Part shown: one piece after another, positions 1,134 to 59,798 of the stretch
How the letters are laid out: the number at the start of each line of letters is the position of its first letter
Position numbering within the stretch: position 1 is the stretch's first letter
NCBI GenBank assembly: GCA_027624915.1
Contig: JAQBTR010000002.1
Span: forward strand, 30,802 to 94,801
Origin: a bacterium
GTDB lineage: Bacteria > Patescibacteriota > Minisyncoccia > Ryanbacterales > GWA2-47-10b
Length of the DNA: 64,000 bases
Reading direction: 5' to 3'
Notes under the pieces: generated by a model
Seen by the model: the letters and a program-made list of their open reading frames with translations, nothing else
Told to the model about the DNA's origin: nothing
Database searches by the model: none
Position numbers and translations under genes: made by a program

Positions 1134-2122
1134 TACCAAAAGACGCAAAACTTGTAGAACATCTTTTTGACCTAGAAAAGATTGAACAGGCCCCAACTCG
1201 TAATGGATATGGAGACGGTCTTGTTGCGGCCGCAGACGAAAACGACCAAGTGGTTGCGCTCTGTGCAGACCTTACCGAATCTACAAAGACAAATTTGTTT
1301 CGAGATAAATATCCAAACAGATTCGTAGAGGTTGGTATTGGTGAACAAAACATGGCATCAGTTGCGTCAGGTATGGCGGCAATGGGTAAGATTCCATATA
1401 TAGCCTCATATGCCATGTTTAGTCCGGGTCGTTCTTGGGAGCAGGTACGAACCACAATTTGTTATAACAATCAAAATGTAAAAATAGTTGGTGCACACTC
1501 TGGTATTTCTGTAGGGCCTGATGGCGCCACACATCAAGCTATAGAAGACATAGCTATTATGCGCGTTTTGCCAAACATGACTGTTATATCACCCTGTGAT
1601 TCCGTTGAGGCTCAAAAAGCCACTGTGGCTGCCGCAAAACATAAAGGGCCAGTATATATTCGTTTTCATAGAGAGAAGACACCAATATTTACTAGTGAAG
1701 ACACCCCATTTGAAATAGGAAAGGCTGTTATATTTTATGACCCCAAGGAAGTTACTGTTGCGGTAATCGCAACGGGTCCAATTGGCCACAATGCTTTGTT
1801 GGCGGCAAAAAATCTTGAGGAGAAAGGCATTGGAGTACGCGTAATAAATTGTCCTACGATAAAGCCGCTCGATGAAAAAATAATATTGAAGGCTGCAAAA
1901 GATGCTGGGGCAGTTGTTGTTGTTGAAGAACATCAAGCACATGGCGGGCTCGGTTCAGCTGTCGCTGAGTTATTAGCTGAAAATTATCCTGTTCCTATGG
2001 AATTTGTTGGAGTAAAAGATCGTTTTGGTGAATCAGGTCAGCTTGATGAATTATTTGAGGCATTTGGGCTTACAGTTTCAGATATAGAGAAAGCCATTAC
2101 TAGTGTCATAGATCGCAAATAG
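1130..2122 (+). CDS. transketolase, C-terminal (pyrimidine-binding) subunit
   Basis: pyrimidine-binding and C-terminal transketolase domain similarity (EVGIGEQNMASVASGMA...). Confidence 0.85.
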   Translation: MIPKDAKLVEHLFDLEKIEQAPTRNGYGDGLVAAADENDQVVALCADLTESTKTNLFRDKYPNRFVEVGIGEQNMASVASGMAAMGKIPYIASYAMFSPGRSWEQVRTTICYNNQNVKIVGAHSGISVGPDGATHQAIEDIAIMRVLPNMTVISPCDSVEAQKATVAAAKHKGPVYIRFHREKTPIFTSEDTPFEIGKAVIFYDPKEVTVAVIATGPIGHNALLAAKNLEEKGIGVRVINCPTIKPLDEKIILKAAKDAGAVVVVEEHQAHGGLGSAVAELLAENYPVPMEFVGVKDRFGESGQLDELFEAFGLTVSDIEKAITSVIDRK

Positions 2123-11390: not shown

Positions 11391-11465
11391 GCCAGTATAG
11401 CTCAGTGGTAGAGCAATGCTTTTGTAAAGCATAGGTCGTGGGTTCGAATCCCTCTGCTGGCTCCA
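11391..11465 (+). tRNA. tRNA-Thr (anticodon TGT), CCA encoded
   Basis: cloverleaf folded by hand: acceptor gccagta/tgctggc, anticodon loop tttgtaa, T-loop ttcgaat. Confidence 0.85.
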
Positions 11466-11466
11466 A

Positions 11467-11565
11467 GTTTGAAAAACAATTTCAAGTGAGAGGGATGAGA
11501 ACAGAGTGCTGTTAGCACTCTGCGGGGTTTGTGATAGGCAAACCGAATCCCTCTGCTGGCTCCAA
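11467..11565 (+). repeat. tRNA-downstream structured element ending in a 22-nt copy of the tRNA-Thr 3' end (cgaatccctctgctggctccaa)
   Basis: hairpin agagtgc-tgtta-gcactct, then a hairpin with loop tgatagg, then an exact duplicate of the tRNA 3' end; homologous to the element at 32838-32918. Confidence 0.55.
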
Positions 11566-12911: not shown

Positions 12912-13427
12912 ATGTTAAAAATAGGAGAATTAGCCCCAGAGTTTAAGCTCGAGGGCTATCACAATGGGAAATTTAGGGACTACAACCTTAAACAATATAA
13001 GAAGAAGTGGCTTGTCATCTTTTTCTACCCTCTTGATTTTACATTTGTATGCCCAACTGAAATTAAGCAGTTTTCAAAGAAACATGATGAGTTTAAGAAG
13101 TTAAAAGCAGATGTTGTTGGTGTGTCAGTAGACTCGATTCATTCGCACAAGGCATGGGTTGAGGGGTCTTTGGGAAAGCTCAATTTTCCTTTACTTGCTG
13201 ACTTCCACAAGAAGATGGCAAGAGATTATGAAATATTACTTGATGATGAGGGAGTGGCACTTCGCGGTACGTTTATTATCGACCCATATGGAAAACTTCG
13301 TTACATGGTCGTATCTGACAATGATGTTGGACGCTCAGTAGACGAGACAATTCGAGTTCTCTCGGCACTCCAAACTGGAAAGCTTTGTCCAATTGAGTGG
13401 ACACCAGGTAAAAAGACGCTTAATTAA
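12912..13427 (+). CDS. peroxiredoxin (AhpC/TSA family, 2-Cys type)
   Basis: FFYPLDFTFVCPTE peroxidatic Cys motif and C-terminal resolving Cys (GKLCPIEW). Confidence 0.85.
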   Translation: MLKIGELAPEFKLEGYHNGKFRDYNLKQYKKKWLVIFFYPLDFTFVCPTEIKQFSKKHDEFKKLKADVVGVSVDSIHSHKAWVEGSLGKLNFPLLADFHKKMARDYEILLDDEGVALRGTFIIDPYGKLRYMVVSDNDVGRSVDETIRVLSALQTGKLCPIEWTPGKKTLN

Positions 13428-13430
13428 ACC

Positions 13431-13462
13431 TAAAAAACCGTTTAGCTTAGCGGTTTTTTGAC
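13431..13462 (+). terminator. rho-independent terminator
   Basis: aaaaaccg-tttagcttag-cggtttttt hairpin plus T-run. Confidence 0.6.
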
Positions 13463-13589
13463 GGCGACAAGACCTTGACACATATGCATAATATGTGTTA
13501 GGGTTCTTACAGAAATGGCGAGGCATTTGTTTCTCGTTATAAAGATAAGATTCCGTGACCCTACGGGTCCAGCGGAAAGGAGGACCGTA

Positions 13590-14054
13590 ATGAAGTACCT
13601 TCGAATCCCAGCGGCGATCGGGGTCGCAGTTCTGTTCACTGTTTTGGCTCTGGCTACGTCTGCACGCGCGGATGCGGATCAGGCCACGTTCGTGCCGTTC
13701 GAAGACGGCACGGGTGCTGTCGTGACCTCCGAAGGAGTTTACGGGGTCGACAAGAATCGTTCGGTGGATTCTTTCGCCTCGCTCGAAGACTCGTCACAGA
13801 ACGTGGCGATCCCGCGGTGCATGCGGTCGCGCACGGAGGCCGAGGCTGCGTGTCCCCAGTTTTTCACTTACGTGAAGCAGAACTGGTTCTGCTTCTACTG
13901 CGCGCTCTGCCAGATCCGCGCTGACAACGAAATCCTCTGTCGCGAGGAAGCCAAGCCATACATCCGTGCACGTTTCGGCATCCGTTCGTCTGGCGAAAGG
14001 GCATCATCGTCTGGTGCGATTCGCTCGGGAGGTCGGCGTCTCGGCCGGCGGTAG
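13590..14054 (+). CDS. small secreted Cys-containing protein encoded in a GC-rich (about 60% GC) island
   Basis: AAGGAGG RBS 7 nt upstream; signal peptide MKYLRIPAAIGVAVLFTVLALATSARA; GC-rich codon usage unlike the flanking DNA; own GC-rich terminator downstream. Confidence 0.55.
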   Translation: MKYLRIPAAIGVAVLFTVLALATSARADADQATFVPFEDGTGAVVTSEGVYGVDKNRSVDSFASLEDSSQNVAIPRCMRSRTEAEAACPQFFTYVKQNWFCFYCALCQIRADNEILCREEAKPYIRARFGIRSSGERASSSGAIRSGGRRLGRR

Positions 14055-14090
14055 CCAAAGCTTTGAGGGGGGGGCGAACCCCTCCCAGTC

Positions 14091-14130
14091 CAGCCCTGGA
14101 TGCGTGAGCATCCAGGGCTGTTTTCTTTTT
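14091..14130 (+). terminator. GC-rich rho-independent terminator ending the GC-rich island
   Basis: cagccctggatgc-gtga-gcatccagggctg followed by ttttcttttt. Confidence 0.7.
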
Positions 14131-14153
14131 CTATTGACTCAAAGTTTTAAAAC

Positions 14154-14169
14154 ATAGATAATCATCTAT
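14154..14169. promoter_or_regulatory. palindromic candidate operator (atagat-aatc-atctat) abutting the arsR-family start codon
   Basis: perfect 6-4-6 inverted repeat immediately 5' of the ATG at 14170; TTGACT -35-like box at 14133. Confidence 0.35.
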
Positions 14170-14448
14170 ATGTCAGTGAAAGAAAAGAATTGTGTATCGT
14201 GTTTTAAGATCTTGGCAGAACCAACACGTATTTCACTTATCAAATATTTACAATCTGGTTCATATAATGTCACCGAGATAACAAAATATTTGGGTGTAAC
14301 TCAGCCAACCGTTTCTCATCACTTAAAACTTCTTGATAAATTAGGAATGGTTACCAAAGAACCTCGTGGAAGAAAGGTTGTGTATGGTTATAACCAAGAT
14401 TATCCATGTCGTGGATGTGGAGTATTTACGCTTCCAATAAAAACATGA
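14170..14448 (+). CDS. ArsR/SmtB-family transcriptional regulator
   Basis: winged-HTH with typical ArsR region (ITKYLGVTQPTVSHHLKLLDKLGMV). Confidence 0.8.
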   Translation: MSVKEKNCVSCFKILAEPTRISLIKYLQSGSYNVTEITKYLGVTQPTVSHHLKLLDKLGMVTKEPRGRKVVYGYNQDYPCRGCGVFTLPIKT

Positions 14449-56590: not shown

Positions 56591-57106
56591 ATGGATTTCG
56601 ATTTAGCAGCAAATATTGCTCAAATAACTAGCGCCGTTGGTAACCCAGCGCTTGATATAGTTATCATTGTCTTTTTCTTGGCTGCCGGTTTTATTGCAGG
56701 ATCTTTTCAGGGGAGAAATAAGCTCATATCATTCGCACTCGCAAATTATATTACTCTTGCGCTTCAACCCATCATTATAGGACTTTTAAATGCTTACGGA
56801 CTTTTATTTACTCTTTATCGAGATCTAAGTATTTATTTGTTAATGCTTATTGTAGTCTATATGGTACTTGAGCGGACGATCTTTGAGCACGTTAGACTTA
56901 ATGTGTTGAGCTGGTGGAAATCATTTATAACAAGTTTTTCTGTAGTTGGATTTTTTGTCGCAGGCCTCTTGAATATCATGTCATTTCGGGGTATTATTGA
57001 GCTCTCACCAATTACCATTAGTTTGTTTGCGGGACCAACCGCATACTTATTTTGGGCATTGGTACCGCTTGCGGCATTTGCGTACATTGCACCCAAACAC
57101 TACTAA
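56591..57106 (+). CDS. hypothetical polytopic membrane protein
   Basis: 171-aa ORF with 5 predicted TM helices. Confidence 0.4.
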   Translation: MDFDLAANIAQITSAVGNPALDIVIIVFFLAAGFIAGSFQGRNKLISFALANYITLALQPIIIGLLNAYGLLFTLYRDLSIYLLMLIVVYMVLERTIFEHVRLNVLSWWKSFITSFSVVGFFVAGLLNIMSFRGIIELSPITISLFAGPTAYLFWALVPLAAFAYIAPKHY

Positions 57107-57126
57107 AATTTTATATCCGCCAACTT

Positions 57127-57160
57127 CGACGTTTTAGTCGGAGTCCCGACTAAAACGTCG
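57127..57160 (+). terminator. long perfect hairpin (15-bp stem), terminator-like
   Basis: cgacgttttagtcgg-agtc-ccgactaaaacgtcg. Confidence 0.5.
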
Positions 57161-57217
57161 GGATAGTCGGCAACGGTGTTTTCTATCCGCCCATTGCATA
57201 GACGTAGTGAACTTTGT

Positions 57218-57280
57218 CCGCCTGTAGCTCAGTCGGTGGAGGTGAGTCTTCTGGGAGAAGACGAACCACTTTTAAGGGGA
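57218..57280 (+). pseudogene. degenerate tRNA-Lys-like copy (first 22+ nt identical to tRNA-Lys, hairpin inserted between D-arm and anticodon loop)
   Basis: ccgcctgtagctcagtcggtggag + hairpin gtcttct-ggg-agaagac + ccacttttaagggga. Confidence 0.5.
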
Positions 57281-57321
57281 TTTGAAAATTTAATATAAAC
57301 TCGGATTATCGTTAGCAAAGT

Positions 57322-57394
57322 CCGCCTGTAGCTCAGTCGGTAGAGCAGCTCCCTTTTAAGGAGATGGTCGTAGGTTCGATTCCTACCAGGCGGA
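57322..57394 (+). tRNA. tRNA-Lys (anticodon TTT), CCA not encoded
   Basis: acceptor ccgcctg/caggcgg, D-arm gctcagtcggtagagc, anticodon loop cttttaa, T-loop ttcgatt. Confidence 0.8.
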
Positions 57395-57404
57395 CTTTGA
57401 ATGG

Positions 57405-57436
57405 GATAATCCGAGTTCGATTCCTACCAGGCGGAC
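57405..57436 (+). repeat. inverted repeat (gataatccgag, partner ctcggattatc at 57300-57310) followed by a 22-nt duplicate of the tRNA-Lys 3' end
   Basis: gttcgattcctaccaggcggac is identical to the tRNA-Lys T-arm/acceptor 3' region; 11-bp IR brackets the intact tRNA. Confidence 0.55.
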
Positions 57437-57454
57437 AAAATTCAGTACACTAAA

Positions 57455-57533
57455 ACTCAGTCGGTGGAGAATAGGAGACATAGCAGGTCTCCTATTCCAC
57501 TTTTAAGAAGCTAGCCGTAGGTTCAGGGCGGAC
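57455..57533 (+). pseudogene. second degenerate tRNA-Lys-like copy with inserted hairpin
   Basis: actcagtcggtggag + hairpin aataggagac-atagcag-gtctcctatt + ccacttttaagaag...ccgtaggttcagggcggac. Confidence 0.5.
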
Positions 57534-57711
57534 GGGGTGATATGGTCAAAAAAAGTGCTATTGTGGTTCTGAAGTACAAAAGGAGCTGAAATGGACATAG
57601 TATATGATATGCTTAGAATGATCGGTACGGTAGACTACCCTGGTAAAAAGTAATTAAATAGCAACAACTTTCAGAACCTCTTTTCTGGTGGTTAGAACTT
57701 TTATGTGAAAA

Positions 57712-57742
57712 TTCAACGGCTCATATATGAGCCGTTGAAAAT
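57712..57742. repeat. palindromic repeated element, copy 2 (ttcaacggctca-tatat-tgagccgttgaaaat)
   Basis: matches 51304-51334 except the loop; flanks also similar. Confidence 0.7.
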
Positions 57743-57752
57743 GAGCATGAGT

Positions 57753-57796
57753 AAAGCCCCGGGGCGCGAATGCCGCCGGGGCTTTGTGGTTTTGGG
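57753..57796. terminator. GC-rich hairpin terminator at the edge of the second GC-rich island
   Basis: aaagccccggggcgcgaatgccgccggggctttgtggtttt. Confidence 0.55.
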
Positions 57797-57815
57797 TCCG
57801 TAGGTTCACAGACCT

Positions 57816-57917
57816 CTAGAAGATGAAGAATGGAAGTACGATGGAGATCACGGAGAGTATGATGAGGCCAATGACAGCAGCCGTCATCTCTTCTCGCCCC
57901 TCTCGGTCTCTATTCAT
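57816..57917 (-). CDS. small hydrophobic peptide (33 aa), candidate
   Basis: MNRDREGREEMTAAVIGLIILSVISIVLPFFIF, one TM helix; lies in the GC-richer patch; below the ORF-track size cutoff. Confidence 0.3.
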   Translation of the reverse strand: MNRDREGREEMTAAVIGLIILSVISIVLPFFIF

Positions 57918-57932
57918 TACTTCTCCTTGTCG

Positions 57933-58046
57933 TCAGTGAAGACCGCTGATGCTACTCACGAACTTGAAAAGTCCGTAGCAGACGGTCGAAAAACAGATCG
58001 TGATCACCCACATCATTCTCCGCATTTCTTTCTCTTCTCTGCTCAT
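57933..58046 (-). CDS. small hydrophobic peptide (37 aa), candidate
   Basis: MSREEKEMRRMMWVITICFSTVCYGLFKFVSSISGLH, one TM helix; tandem with the previous one. Confidence 0.3.
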   Translation of the reverse strand: MSREEKEMRRMMWVITICFSTVCYGLFKFVSSISGLH

Positions 58047-58375
58047 GTGCACCTACCTCCGTTGTCGTTTCGAAGCACACAAGAAACCTCTCCACAGGAG
58101 ATCTTGATTTCGTAGACCTTCCTGTCGGCATGATTTACATGCCACGAAATGACGCTCGGAACTTCTCCCGGTAGCGCATCTCTAATTTCGTCTACCTTAG
58201 CAGAGTACGAAGACTCTCTATTCCAGATGAGCTCCTCGGCCCGTCGAAGTCGAGGTGCCGCCACCCAGTTGATCAGATTGTGGCACGCGACTCGGCTTGA
58301 ACGAACGTCGCCTAGATAGTCCAAAGCGAACCAAAGGCACATGAGAGCAACTGCAATGACTACAACCTTCTTCAT
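58043..58375 (-). CDS. small secreted protein (111 aa) encoded in a GC-richer patch
   Basis: start set at ATG 58375 with a GGAGGA RBS; signal peptide MKKVVVIAVALMCLWFAL; the 5' part of the longer track ORF is AT-rich and looks non-coding. Confidence 0.5.
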   Translation of the reverse strand: MKKVVVIAVALMCLWFALDYLGDVRSSRVACHNLINWVAAPRLRRAEELIWNRESSYSAKVDEIRDALPGEVPSVISWHVNHADRKVYEIKISCGEVSCVLRNDNGGRCT

Positions 58376-58676
58376 TCTTCCTCCAGTTGTGAACATGACT
58401 ACCATGGTCACGTGATTTGTACGGTTTGGGACTATTATACTACTTTTAAGGTATTTGTCAATCCTAAAACTAAGGTTGCTGTACAATATCATTTCCACTG
58501 CATTTCCCATTATTTTGGCTACATCCCAATAAAAATTTCTCTCCAATACCCAAGGCATTAAGTTCAAAATTTTTAGCTGTGACTCGCTCAAAATAATGAA
58601 AATTCACAAGGAAAGCATCTGGTACAACAAGCTCTGTACCTACCAAGCATTTTGAGCTTTTGTTAATCTCTACTTA

Positions 58677-59798
58677 ATGCGAAAAAATAACCTGCGAACT
58701 TGGGTAGAGGTAGACACTAAGGCCCTCGAAAAAAATTATCGTATCTTTCGGAGACTCACGGGTCGCAAAACAGCCTTGATGGCAGTTGCTAAGTCCAACG
58801 CGTATGGCCATTCTCTTCATGATTTTGCGCGAGTCATGCAAAAGTTTGGCGTGGATTGGATTGGGGCCGACTCTATAACAGAAGCTATAGCGCTACGCGA
58901 AGCAAAGATAAAGAAGCCGTTACTTGTGTTGGGCCATACCTTGCCTTTGAGATATAAAGAAGCTGCCGAAAATAATATCAGTGTTACTGTCTCCACACAC
59001 GAAGCGTTAGATGCAATCGTAAAGAAAACATTTTCTAAACCACTAAAGATCCACCTCAAAATAGACACGGGTATGTCGAGACAGGGGTTTTTTGTAGAAG
59101 ACTTGCCAGAAGTATTTGCAGAGCTCTCTCACAAGAAAGACAAAATAAAATTTGAAGGCATCTATACGCATTTTGCAGCTGCCAAAAACCCATCCTTTCC
59201 TTTTGATACACACAAACAGCTTGAGGTTTTTGACCGTGCCCTTAAGGCGGCCGAATTTGCTGGATTTAAAAATCTGATACGACATGCGGCCGCCACATCC
59301 GGCCTCATCGTGTTTCCAGAATCGAAGTTTGATATGGCACGTGTGGGGATTGGTATGTATGGTCTGTGGCCATCACGCGAAGTCGAAGCTGCTTTTTCTG
59401 ACCGAATAAAATTACAACCAGCTCTTACTTGGAAGGCTATTATTGGCGAGACCAAGACTCTCACAAAAGGAAGTGGCGTTGGGTACGACTTCACCGAAAA
59501 AGTTCAAAATGATATGCGCGTAGCCATTATTCCTATTGGGTATTGGCATGGATACCCACGAAAACTTTCAAGTATAGGCAGGGTAATAATAAAAGGTGGA
59601 GTAGCTCGCGTTGTTGGGCGTGTTTCAATGGACATGATTGTTGTCGATATTAGTGGTGTACCAAGCACTAAGGTGGGGGACGAGGTGATATTACTTGGAA
59701 AGGGCTTTTCGGCTGATGATTTTGCACTACTTTCTGATACAATAAACTATGAAGCGGTAACACAAATTAATCCTTTGATCCACCGCTTCTATAATTGA
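58677..59798 (+). CDS. alr: alanine racemase (PLP-dependent)
   Basis: PLP-lysine motif VAKSNAYGHS and alanine racemase N- and C-domain similarity. Confidence 0.85.
   Translation: MRKNNLRTWVEVDTKALEKNYRIFRRLTGRKTALMAVAKSNAYGHSLHDFARVMQKFGVDWIGADSITEAIALREAKIKKPLLVLGHTLPLRYKEAAENNISVTVSTHEALDAIVKKTFSKPLKIHLKIDTGMSRQGFFVEDLPEVFAELSHKKDKIKFEGIYTHFAAAKNPSFPFDTHKQLEVFDRALKAAEFAGFKNLIRHAAATSGLIVFPESKFDMARVGIGMYGLWPSREVEAAFSDRIKLQPALTWKAIIGETKTLTKGSGVGYDFTEKVQNDMRVAIIPIGYWHGYPRKLSSIGRVIIKGGVARVVGRVSMDMIVVDISGVPSTKVGDEVILLGKGFSADDFALLSDTINYEAVTQINPLIHRFYN

Follow-up and report, generated by a model that had tools for sequence, protein, structure and literature searches.

How does a stretch of about 0.7 kb that is richer in guanine plus cytosine (GC) than its surroundings, and whose predicted proteins resemble nothing in the databases, come to lie between a tRNA gene and a housekeeping gene, and what might it do there? 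The question is raised by a 64-kb window of a contig from an uncultured, ultra-small Patescibacteria bacterium of the Parcubacteria type (JAQBTR010000002.1; the window is the whole stretch of DNA that was analysed, and all coordinates refer to positions in it), in which three open reading frames (ORFs), designated ORF1, ORF2 and ORF3, occupy the minus strand between the gene for tRNA-Lys(UUU) (57322-57395, plus strand) and alr (58677-59798, plus strand). On balance we lean towards the view that they constitute a self-contained three-cistron unit, whose most likely origin is horizontal transfer from a donor richer in GC and which resides in a hypervariable tRNA-Lys(UUU)/alr gap and plays an accessory role in the cell envelope. 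As a type, the operon is a familiar object, namely a small, acquired cassette with its own means of expression, sitting at a hotspot linked to a tRNA and here encoding three orphan membrane proteins. An earlier note had drawn attention to this patch from its sequence; what it observed is confirmed, its idea of an island is supported in general form, and its guesses about function are not supported. In the direction of the predicted transcription, the unit consists of the following parts.

58434-58461, minus strand: consensus sigma-70 promoter, with TTGACA at 58461-58456, a 16-nt spacer and TATAAT at 58439-58434, matching at 12 of 12 positions.
58376-58427, minus strand: predicted 5' leader, about 50 nt long, with the Shine-Dalgarno (SD) sequence GGAGGA (58384-58379) at its end.
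58043-58375, minus strand: ORF1, 110 amino acids (aa), with the SD GGAGGA at 58384-58379; GC of 0.56, 0.42 and 0.54 at codon positions one, two and three (GC1, GC2 and GC3).
57933-58046, minus strand: ORF2, 37 aa, whose ATG overlaps the TGA of ORF1 as ATGA, with GGAGG 9 nt upstream; GC3 0.66.
57816-57917, minus strand: ORF3, 33 aa, with AAGGAG 5 nt upstream; GC3 0.62.
57712-57814, minus strand: 3' region with three hairpins, putative tandem intrinsic terminators.

That this patch differs from its host is evident at two levels. Between 57745 and 58380 the GC content is 51.1%, as opposed to 41.6% over the window as a whole, which gives z = 3.3 relative to all stretches of equal length, and only one other region, 13241-14337, referred to as the first island in the earlier note, matches this level. 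At the level of codons, for which 29 long host ORFs of the window served as the reference, GC3 amounts to 0.54, 0.66 and 0.62 in ORF1, ORF2 and ORF3, respectively, compared with 0.325±0.037 (maximum 0.425) in host genes, and the codon adaptation index to 0.56, 0.47 and 0.47 compared with 0.71±0.026 (minimum 0.654). The patch of about 50% GC on the minus strand near the tRNA-Lys cluster, and its foreign look, as originally described, are thus borne out by measurement, all three ORFs lying beyond the range of host genes; the possibility, also raised at that time, that the shift falls within local variation does not hold, as the shift goes far beyond it. The values for ORF1 (GC1, GC2 and GC3 of 0.559, 0.423 and 0.541), with the minimum at the second position, follow the pattern of real coding DNA.

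Could such an abrupt jump in composition simply reflect a misjoin, by which a GC-richer fragment of some other organism ended up in this contig? Besides the jump itself, one may point to the N gaps at ~57149 and ~59977 that flank the region in the European Nucleotide Archive (ENA) scaffold ERZ23495043. However, the same sequence is present in three assemblies, i.e. the contig of the NCBI metagenome-assembled genome (MDA1334609.1, MDA1334610.1), the ENA scaffold and a Logan contig from run SRR2027830, all base-for-base identical across the alr junction, even though they may stem from identical or related read sets. The Logan contig is 100% identical over 57842-59761, so that most of the operon is joined to alr in it, and a single piece of the ENA scaffold, bounded by the two N gaps, spans the operon together with the tRNA-Lys cluster and the greater part of alr. 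In addition, the AT-rich promoter region runs unbroken into the operon, and a relative (locus L092, see below) has a GC-rich gene of this kind in the corresponding place. A chimeric origin of the operon is unlikely, to the point of being barely credible.

The unit is framed by expression signals of its own, the promoter and the terminators being sequence predictions. TTGACA and TATAAT separated by 16 nt are found as a perfect match only once on both strands of the 64-kb window (0.07 expected by chance), and this single match is located 58 nt upstream of the ORF1 ATG, within the 5' extension of a longer, 182-aa ORF. Because that extension has a GC content of only 36.6%, displays a non-coding codon-position pattern and carries the promoter, the choice of the short ORF1 start in the earlier note, where the extension had been called AT-rich and non-coding-looking, was right. 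Transcription would start near 58427. At the opposite end, the 3' region folds with a minimum free energy of -55.4 kcal/mol (z = -9.0) and comprises a short hairpin (57814-57795), a GC-rich hairpin AAAGCCCCGG...CCGGGGCTTT (57785-57753) and a perfect 14+14 palindrome (57739-57712) followed by TTTTCAC (UUUU in RNA). Of these, the middle one is the GC-rich terminator that had been spotted at the outset, now joined by one hairpin before it and one palindrome after it. With these signals in place, the operon would be transcribed on its own, in the manner of a phage moron, and would probably be strongly expressed.

What kind of proteins would it then produce? ORF1 had been introduced as a 111-aa protein with a GGAGGA ribosome-binding site and a signal peptide. 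The gene and its ribosome-binding site are indeed there, but the protein has 110 aa, codon 111 being the stop; likewise, the n-region (MKK) and the h-region (hydrophobic core VVVIAVALMCLWFAL, 15 residues with a Kyte-Doolittle hydropathy of 2.96) of a signal peptide are present, but a canonical signal-peptidase site is not, since the sequence following VVVIAVALMCLWFAL, as read by eye, offers neither small residues at -3/-1 nor a lipobox. For this reason, the N-terminus is more likely to act as an uncleaved signal anchor than as a cleaved signal peptide. Beyond the anchor there are ~88 aa that contain Cys31, Cys94, Cys99 and Cys109. Two single-sequence AlphaFold2 models of ORF1 reach a predicted local distance difference test score (pLDDT) of only 63-64, that is, low confidence; the one with pLDDT 64 contains three strands as well as helices spanning residues 2-52 and 57-67. 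Foldseek returned no match in PDB or BFVD. Taken at face value, these features would make ORF1 a bitopic protein that displays a Cys-containing alpha/beta domain of ~88 aa outside the cell.

ORF2 opens with MSREEKEMRRMM, followed by a single transmembrane stretch, and ORF3 with MNRDREGREEM, followed by a hydrophobic tail that reaches the C-terminus; each of ORF1, ORF2 and ORF3 possesses one hydrophobic stretch of transmembrane length. The two tandem single-pass peptides of 33 and 37 aa listed in the earlier note were found again where the note had placed them. How easily would such a pair arise by chance? The 290 nt that begin 30 nt ahead of the ORF1 stop and reach as far as the GC hairpin were shuffled 5000 times with dinucleotides preserved; by criteria that were set post hoc, a pair of ATG ORFs, each preceded by an SD, at least 30 aa long and containing a transmembrane-like stretch, turned up in 0.02% of these shuffles. 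Both peptides would be tiny, single-pass and oriented with the N-terminus inside; translation of ORF2 would be coupled to that of ORF1 via the ATGA overlap, and the three membrane proteins would be produced together.

Small hydrophobic single-pass peptides arranged in tandem in DNA of foreign composition inevitably bring to mind toxins, and bacteriocin-, immunity- or toxin-like modules is what the earlier note had proposed. According to this scenario, ORF2 and ORF3 would damage membranes, as type I toxins or bacteriocin-like peptides do, with immunity conferred by ORF1 or by one of the peptides themselves. Nevertheless, ORF1-3 match no toxin, bacteriocin, immunity or defence family, there is no Rfam antitoxin RNA, and no promoter-like site antisense to ORF2/ORF3 was detected in what is a weak test, relying on a consensus scan only. 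Neither peptide has a double-glycine leader, neither an ABC transporter nor a peptidase is encoded nearby, and the N-termini of both, short and charged, are acidic or mixed instead of cationic and amphipathic. ORF2 and ORF3 share no significant similarity with each other and are thus not detectable paralogues. Last but not least, strong SDs combined with a consensus promoter of the constitutive type would render an unrestrained toxin lethal, and the polycistronic layout behind this promoter likewise argues against a toxin. Antimicrobial or toxin roles are less likely than the envelope role, and the toxin scenario as a whole strikes us as highly improbable.

Do these proteins have relatives anywhere? 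Searches of Pfam, NCBIfam, PHROGs and PADLOC with ORF1-3 yielded no match, only noise at E >= 0.07. For ORF1, no homologue was found among ~15 billion proteins, a word-indexed search of 5.8 billion clusters retrieved only ORF1 itself, and nothing emerged from scans of genome, metagenome and viral contigs, from blastn and tblastn searches of phages and plasmids or from a PDB sequence search. Two other phmmer matches to ORF1, obtained in an exhaustive search of 1.84 billion representatives, were discarded because they are translations of tandem repeats with scores summed over the repeats. tblastn searches of phage genomes with ORF2 and ORF3 were empty. At the RNA level, Rfam (E≤1 over 56900-58800) reported only the tRNA and one sub-threshold match, to the Plastid-ycf2 5' untranslated region RNA on the strand opposite to the tRNA (26 bits versus a cut-off of 65.7 bits). 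The earlier note had named two outcomes that would speak against it, lack of conservation in relatives and a compositional shift within normal variation; the former is what was found, in that no conservation was seen anywhere, the latter is not, as the shift holds, and the first result has to be read against the fact that no relative above 63% alr identity has been sequenced.

The gene content of the window is typical of Parcubacteria (Patescibacteria), including ribosomal proteins, hrcA-grpE-dnaK-dnaJ, alr and scpAB, and the operon is situated among hrcA-grpE-dnaK-dnaJ, tRNA-Lys, alr, a UbiA-family gene and a histidine kinase. The closest alr product among ~15 billion proteins is 63% identical, so that close relatives are missing from the sequenced genomes; where alr relatives bear a source name, the label is nearly always Patescibacteria or Parcubacteria, and the 32 genome loci and 55 metagenome loci recovered via alr are mostly non-syntenic. 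In those relatives whose alr is 60-63% identical, tRNA-Lys is always found just upstream of alr, and the gap between the two measures 115-1282 nt, with a different content each time. In locus L097 (DnaJ 71% identical; same order of dnaJ, p171 homologue, tRNA-Lys and alr), the gap contains nothing but fragments of tRNA-Lys and a GIY-YIG remnant, after which comes an AT-rich spacer of 224 nt (38.8% GC); in L095, the gap is empty (115 nt, 32.5% GC); and in L090, tRNA-Lys is accompanied by a GIY-YIG gene (89 aa, intact), a gene of 71 aa and a portion of a large serine recombinase. The operon is thus absent from the same gap in its nearest syntenic relatives, in agreement with the initial idea of an island next to a tRNA gene. 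A closer look at two of these loci reveals that, at 3268-3770 of L097, an older tRNA-Lys is split into a 5' and a 3' piece, both with inserted hairpins, that lie around the GIY-YIG remnant and a replacement tRNA-Lys, and that, at 1130-1641 of L090, tRNA-Lys sits beside the intact 89-aa GIY-YIG gene and the fragment of the large serine recombinase. These two arrangements suggest a mobile element that targets tRNA-Lys and brings its own copy of the tRNA.

Does the present locus bear comparable marks? The features relevant here are two.

57322-57395, plus strand: intact tRNA-Lys(UUU), identified by ARAGORN and by Rfam (72.4 bits), convergent with the operon.
57216-57536, plus strand: cluster of tRNA-Lys fragments, forming the context of the operon and lying outside it.

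Within the cluster, the 5' half of the tRNA is repeated at 57216-57285, 22 nt of its 3' end are repeated exactly at 57415-57436, and the full length recurs in degenerate form at 57444-57536. The intact gene is flanked by perfect inverted sequences of 13 nt (57298-57310 and 57405-57417), and leader, tRNA-Lys and trailer fold as one long stem (-60 kcal/mol, z -8.5). Such scars on the tRNA side are compatible with several attacks by elements that target tRNAs, of the kind seen in L097 and L090. The GC-rich unit is not enclosed by them, however: all clear tRNA fragments are confined to the tRNA side of the operon (57216-57536), the last hairpin of which ends at 57712, and the sole candidate for a bracketing repeat (57486-57507 versus 58429-58450, 17/22 around CTTTTAAG) is marginal, at about the level of chance (a rough estimate puts its occurrence by chance at ~7%). 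Nor is there any integrase or mobility ORF between 57396 and 58676. Of the original proposal of island insertion at tRNA loci, the tRNA-Lys-linked variable gap with mobile-element scars stands; an integration proper is not demonstrated, the locus having neither an integrase nor clear tRNA-derived bracketing repeats. What the data support is cargo peculiar to this lineage, foreign in composition and housed in a hypervariable gap linked to a tRNA, rather than a defined integration event.

Three smaller observations pertain to the same region. The pseudo-copies at 57216-57285 and 57444-57536 carry differing hairpins at the same position, in place of the anticodon stem's 5' side. At 57127-57160, after the gene for a 171-aa membrane protein, lies a perfect 15+15 hairpin (CGACGTTTTAGTCGG / CCGACTAAAACGTCG), and one of the ENA N gaps falls exactly there. 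Between the tRNA fragments and the palindromic terminator there is a 20-aa ORF (MDIVYDMLRMIGTVDYPGKK; 57582-57644, plus strand) with an AAAGGAG Shine-Dalgarno sequence.

With scars of this kind so close by, is it not simpler to regard the unit as a neutral leftover, i.e. as the last fragment of a mobile element or prophage that was once integrated at tRNA-Lys, recent, functionless and due to decay? The tRNA-Lys fragments and the exact 22-nt copy of the 3' end adjoin the unit, GIY-YIG and serine recombinase genes occur at this site in relatives, no mobility gene remains at the locus, and the unit is an orphan whose codon usage is unadapted to the host. Set against this is the fact that its signals are all intact (the 12/12 promoter, three SDs, the ATGA coupling and three hairpins) and that the tRNA fragments fail to bracket it. 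Moreover, Patescibacteria with their small genomes are generally thought to lose useless DNA fast. Weighing both sides, we consider a functionless remnant unlikely, albeit worth keeping in mind, and prefer a self-contained, acquired unit with a function of its own.

Some indication of what that function could be comes from L092, where dnaJ, tRNA-Lys, alr, a histidine kinase, an aminoacyl-tRNA synthetase and scpAB follow in the same order as here, and where a gene for a 148-aa type IV pilin-like protein lies on the minus strand exactly at the position of the operon. The protein scores 18.7 bits with TIGR02532 (cut-off 16.3), and its gene has 51.2% GC in a locus of 39.5%, with GC1, GC2 and GC3 of 0.557, 0.416 and 0.557 that are near-identical to those of ORF1. 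Its terminal hairpin GCCCCGGCGCATCCAGCGTCCGGGGCC aligns with the operon hairpin with a score of 28, compared with a shuffle maximum of 23-25. The underlying motif, GCCCCGG-N8-16-CCGGGGC, occurs once in the window and, among 98 fetched loci, only in L092 (at the equivalent position), besides L001, which is an assembly of the same region. A viral scan for the GC hairpin returned only generic terminators of high-GC phages; since hairpins of this sort are generic there, the likeness between the operon and L092 may be convergent, or else it may betray donors of a similar kind and not a common ancestry. A separate detail of L092 is a 27-aa, fully hydrophobic ORF (MASTFLVEIFVALAFGAALFLFPFIVY; 1221-1304, minus strand) that overlaps the pilin-like gene at its end and has its stop immediately ahead of the GC hairpin; in position it is reminiscent of ORF3, it has no clear Shine-Dalgarno sequence and shows no significant similarity.

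Is ORF1 then a pilin in disguise? It could be conceived as a strongly diverged type IV pilin-like protein that lacks the prepilin motif and represents the positional equivalent of the L092 gene, with ORF2 and ORF3 as its membrane partners. The shared site and orientation, the almost equal GC at the three codon positions and the similar terminator hairpin would all be accounted for, and ORF1 has Cys residues near its C-terminus, reminiscent of the disulfide-bonded end of many pilins. On the other hand, ORF1 differs from type IV pilins and pseudopilins in its N-terminus, MKKVVVIAVALMC, which has no G|FTLIE-type motif for cleavage and methylation; no prepilin motif occurs anywhere in the window; ORF1 matches neither TIGR02532 nor PF07963 (Pfam N_methyl at E≤10, NCBIfam pilin models at E≤1) and shows no detectable sequence similarity to pilins, its alignment with the L092 protein being no better than shuffled (z ~1, p 0.12-0.21); and its models, of low confidence (pLDDT 63-64), gave no Foldseek match. 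We regard a pilin ancestry of ORF1 as rather improbable. The published 'Pam' pilus of the candidate phyla radiation, which is built of immunoglobulin-fold pilins, was also considered and is unrelated to this locus.

Returning to the acquired envelope unit, ORF1-3 would probably assemble into one small envelope complex, and its most likely role would be an accessory one at the cell surface or envelope, for example in contact with a host cell or in the exclusion of phages or foreign DNA. Such a role is a guess, derived from the architecture and from the cargo at the same site in a relative and not from homology; it is the best available guess because the alternative cargo at this site in L092 is a subunit of a surface filament.

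How does the unit compare with systems that are already understood? Phage morons, independent transcription units inserted into prophage genomes, come with a promoter and a terminator of their own and a GC content unlike that of neighbouring genes, and one of them, gene 15 of phage HK97, encodes gp15, an inner-membrane superinfection-exclusion protein (PMC3594210). The operon resembles them in its predicted own promoter and terminators, its deviant GC content and its small membrane-protein products, as well as in being extra DNA with respect to related, if distant, genomes (the gap is empty of it in L097 and L095; alr 62-63%). It departs from them in having three cistrons instead of the usual one and in encoding proteins unrelated to any phage protein, with no PHROG match. 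With tRNA-linked islands the operon shares its location next to a tRNA gene with duplicated 3'-end fragments, its atypical composition, its presence or absence among relatives and the recombinase and GIY-YIG genes that relatives carry at this very site; unlike them, it measures only ~0.7 kb, lacks an integrase and is not clearly bracketed by tRNA-derived repeats, the fragments being all on its tRNA side.

A third comparison concerns ORF2 and ORF3. Bacterial membrane proteins of fewer than 50 aa are known as accessory subunits, KdpF, CydX and AcrZ being examples. Like them, ORF2 and ORF3 are single-pass proteins (33-37 aa) predicted to be co-transcribed with a larger membrane protein, to which ORF2 is also coupled; there is, however, no sequence similarity, and the partner, ORF1, is a small orphan and not a known transporter or oxidase.

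Several points weigh against the reading that we favour. No homologue was found, and the proposed function is a guess. The nearest genome is distant (alr 63%, DnaJ 71%), and over that distance insertion here looks no different from loss in the others, nor can a date be put on it. The mechanism of arrival has left no clear bracketing repeats, integrase or phage genes behind; the operon is embedded among housekeeping genes and not in a prophage, and is hence not a moron in the strict sense; and the GC hairpin that it has in common with L092 is a generic design in high-GC phages. Finally, the distance between the ORF1 SD and its ATG is short (3-4 nt).

A bolder idea would be that the tRNA-Lys/alr gap in this clade of Parcubacteria is a cassette-exchange site for GC-rich, ready-to-express surface-protein modules, and that ORF1-3 represent a new minimal surface complex, possibly derived from a pilin; we put it forward as a long shot. 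In two lineages, the modules in question are almost alike in GC at the three codon positions and have similar terminal hairpins. If true, such modules would be swapped in and out, and ORF1-3 would serve episymbiotic contact or the exclusion of phages. Ultra-small Patescibacteria spend their lives attached to other cells, and the bulk of their surface proteins is functionally uncharacterised. Against this background, the locus offers a clean, small example of ready-made, self-expressing membrane or surface modules gained at a tRNA-linked hotspot, as well as three well-supported small proteins, two of which fall below normal gene-calling cut-offs. Orphan islets of atypical composition beside tRNA genes are common, and no long-standing question is opened by this one.

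Is the operon the only unit of its kind in the window? The earlier note saw its layout mirrored in the first island, at 13470-14130 (60% GC, GC3 0.68). This island comprises a single orphan gene (13581-14054) for a 154/157-aa protein with six Cys and a canonical signal peptide (…ALATSARA|DAD), followed by a strong terminator with a 13-bp stem (14091-14120); no homologue of the protein was found in the search of 5.8 billion clusters. The parallel holds in so far as both are orphan, GC-rich and self-contained cassettes for exported proteins. It fails in that the first island does not lie beside tRNA repeats, since 2 kb and two host-like genes separate it from tRNA-Thr and the 22-nt repeat of that tRNA's 3' end, and there is no significant similarity between the first island and the operon, be it in DNA or in protein (ORF1 versus the island protein). 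The tRNA-Thr(UGU) region itself (11391-11565) contains an exact 22-nt copy of the tRNA 3' end at 11544-11565, 99 nt downstream, which is the same kind of scar as that seen at tRNA-Lys.

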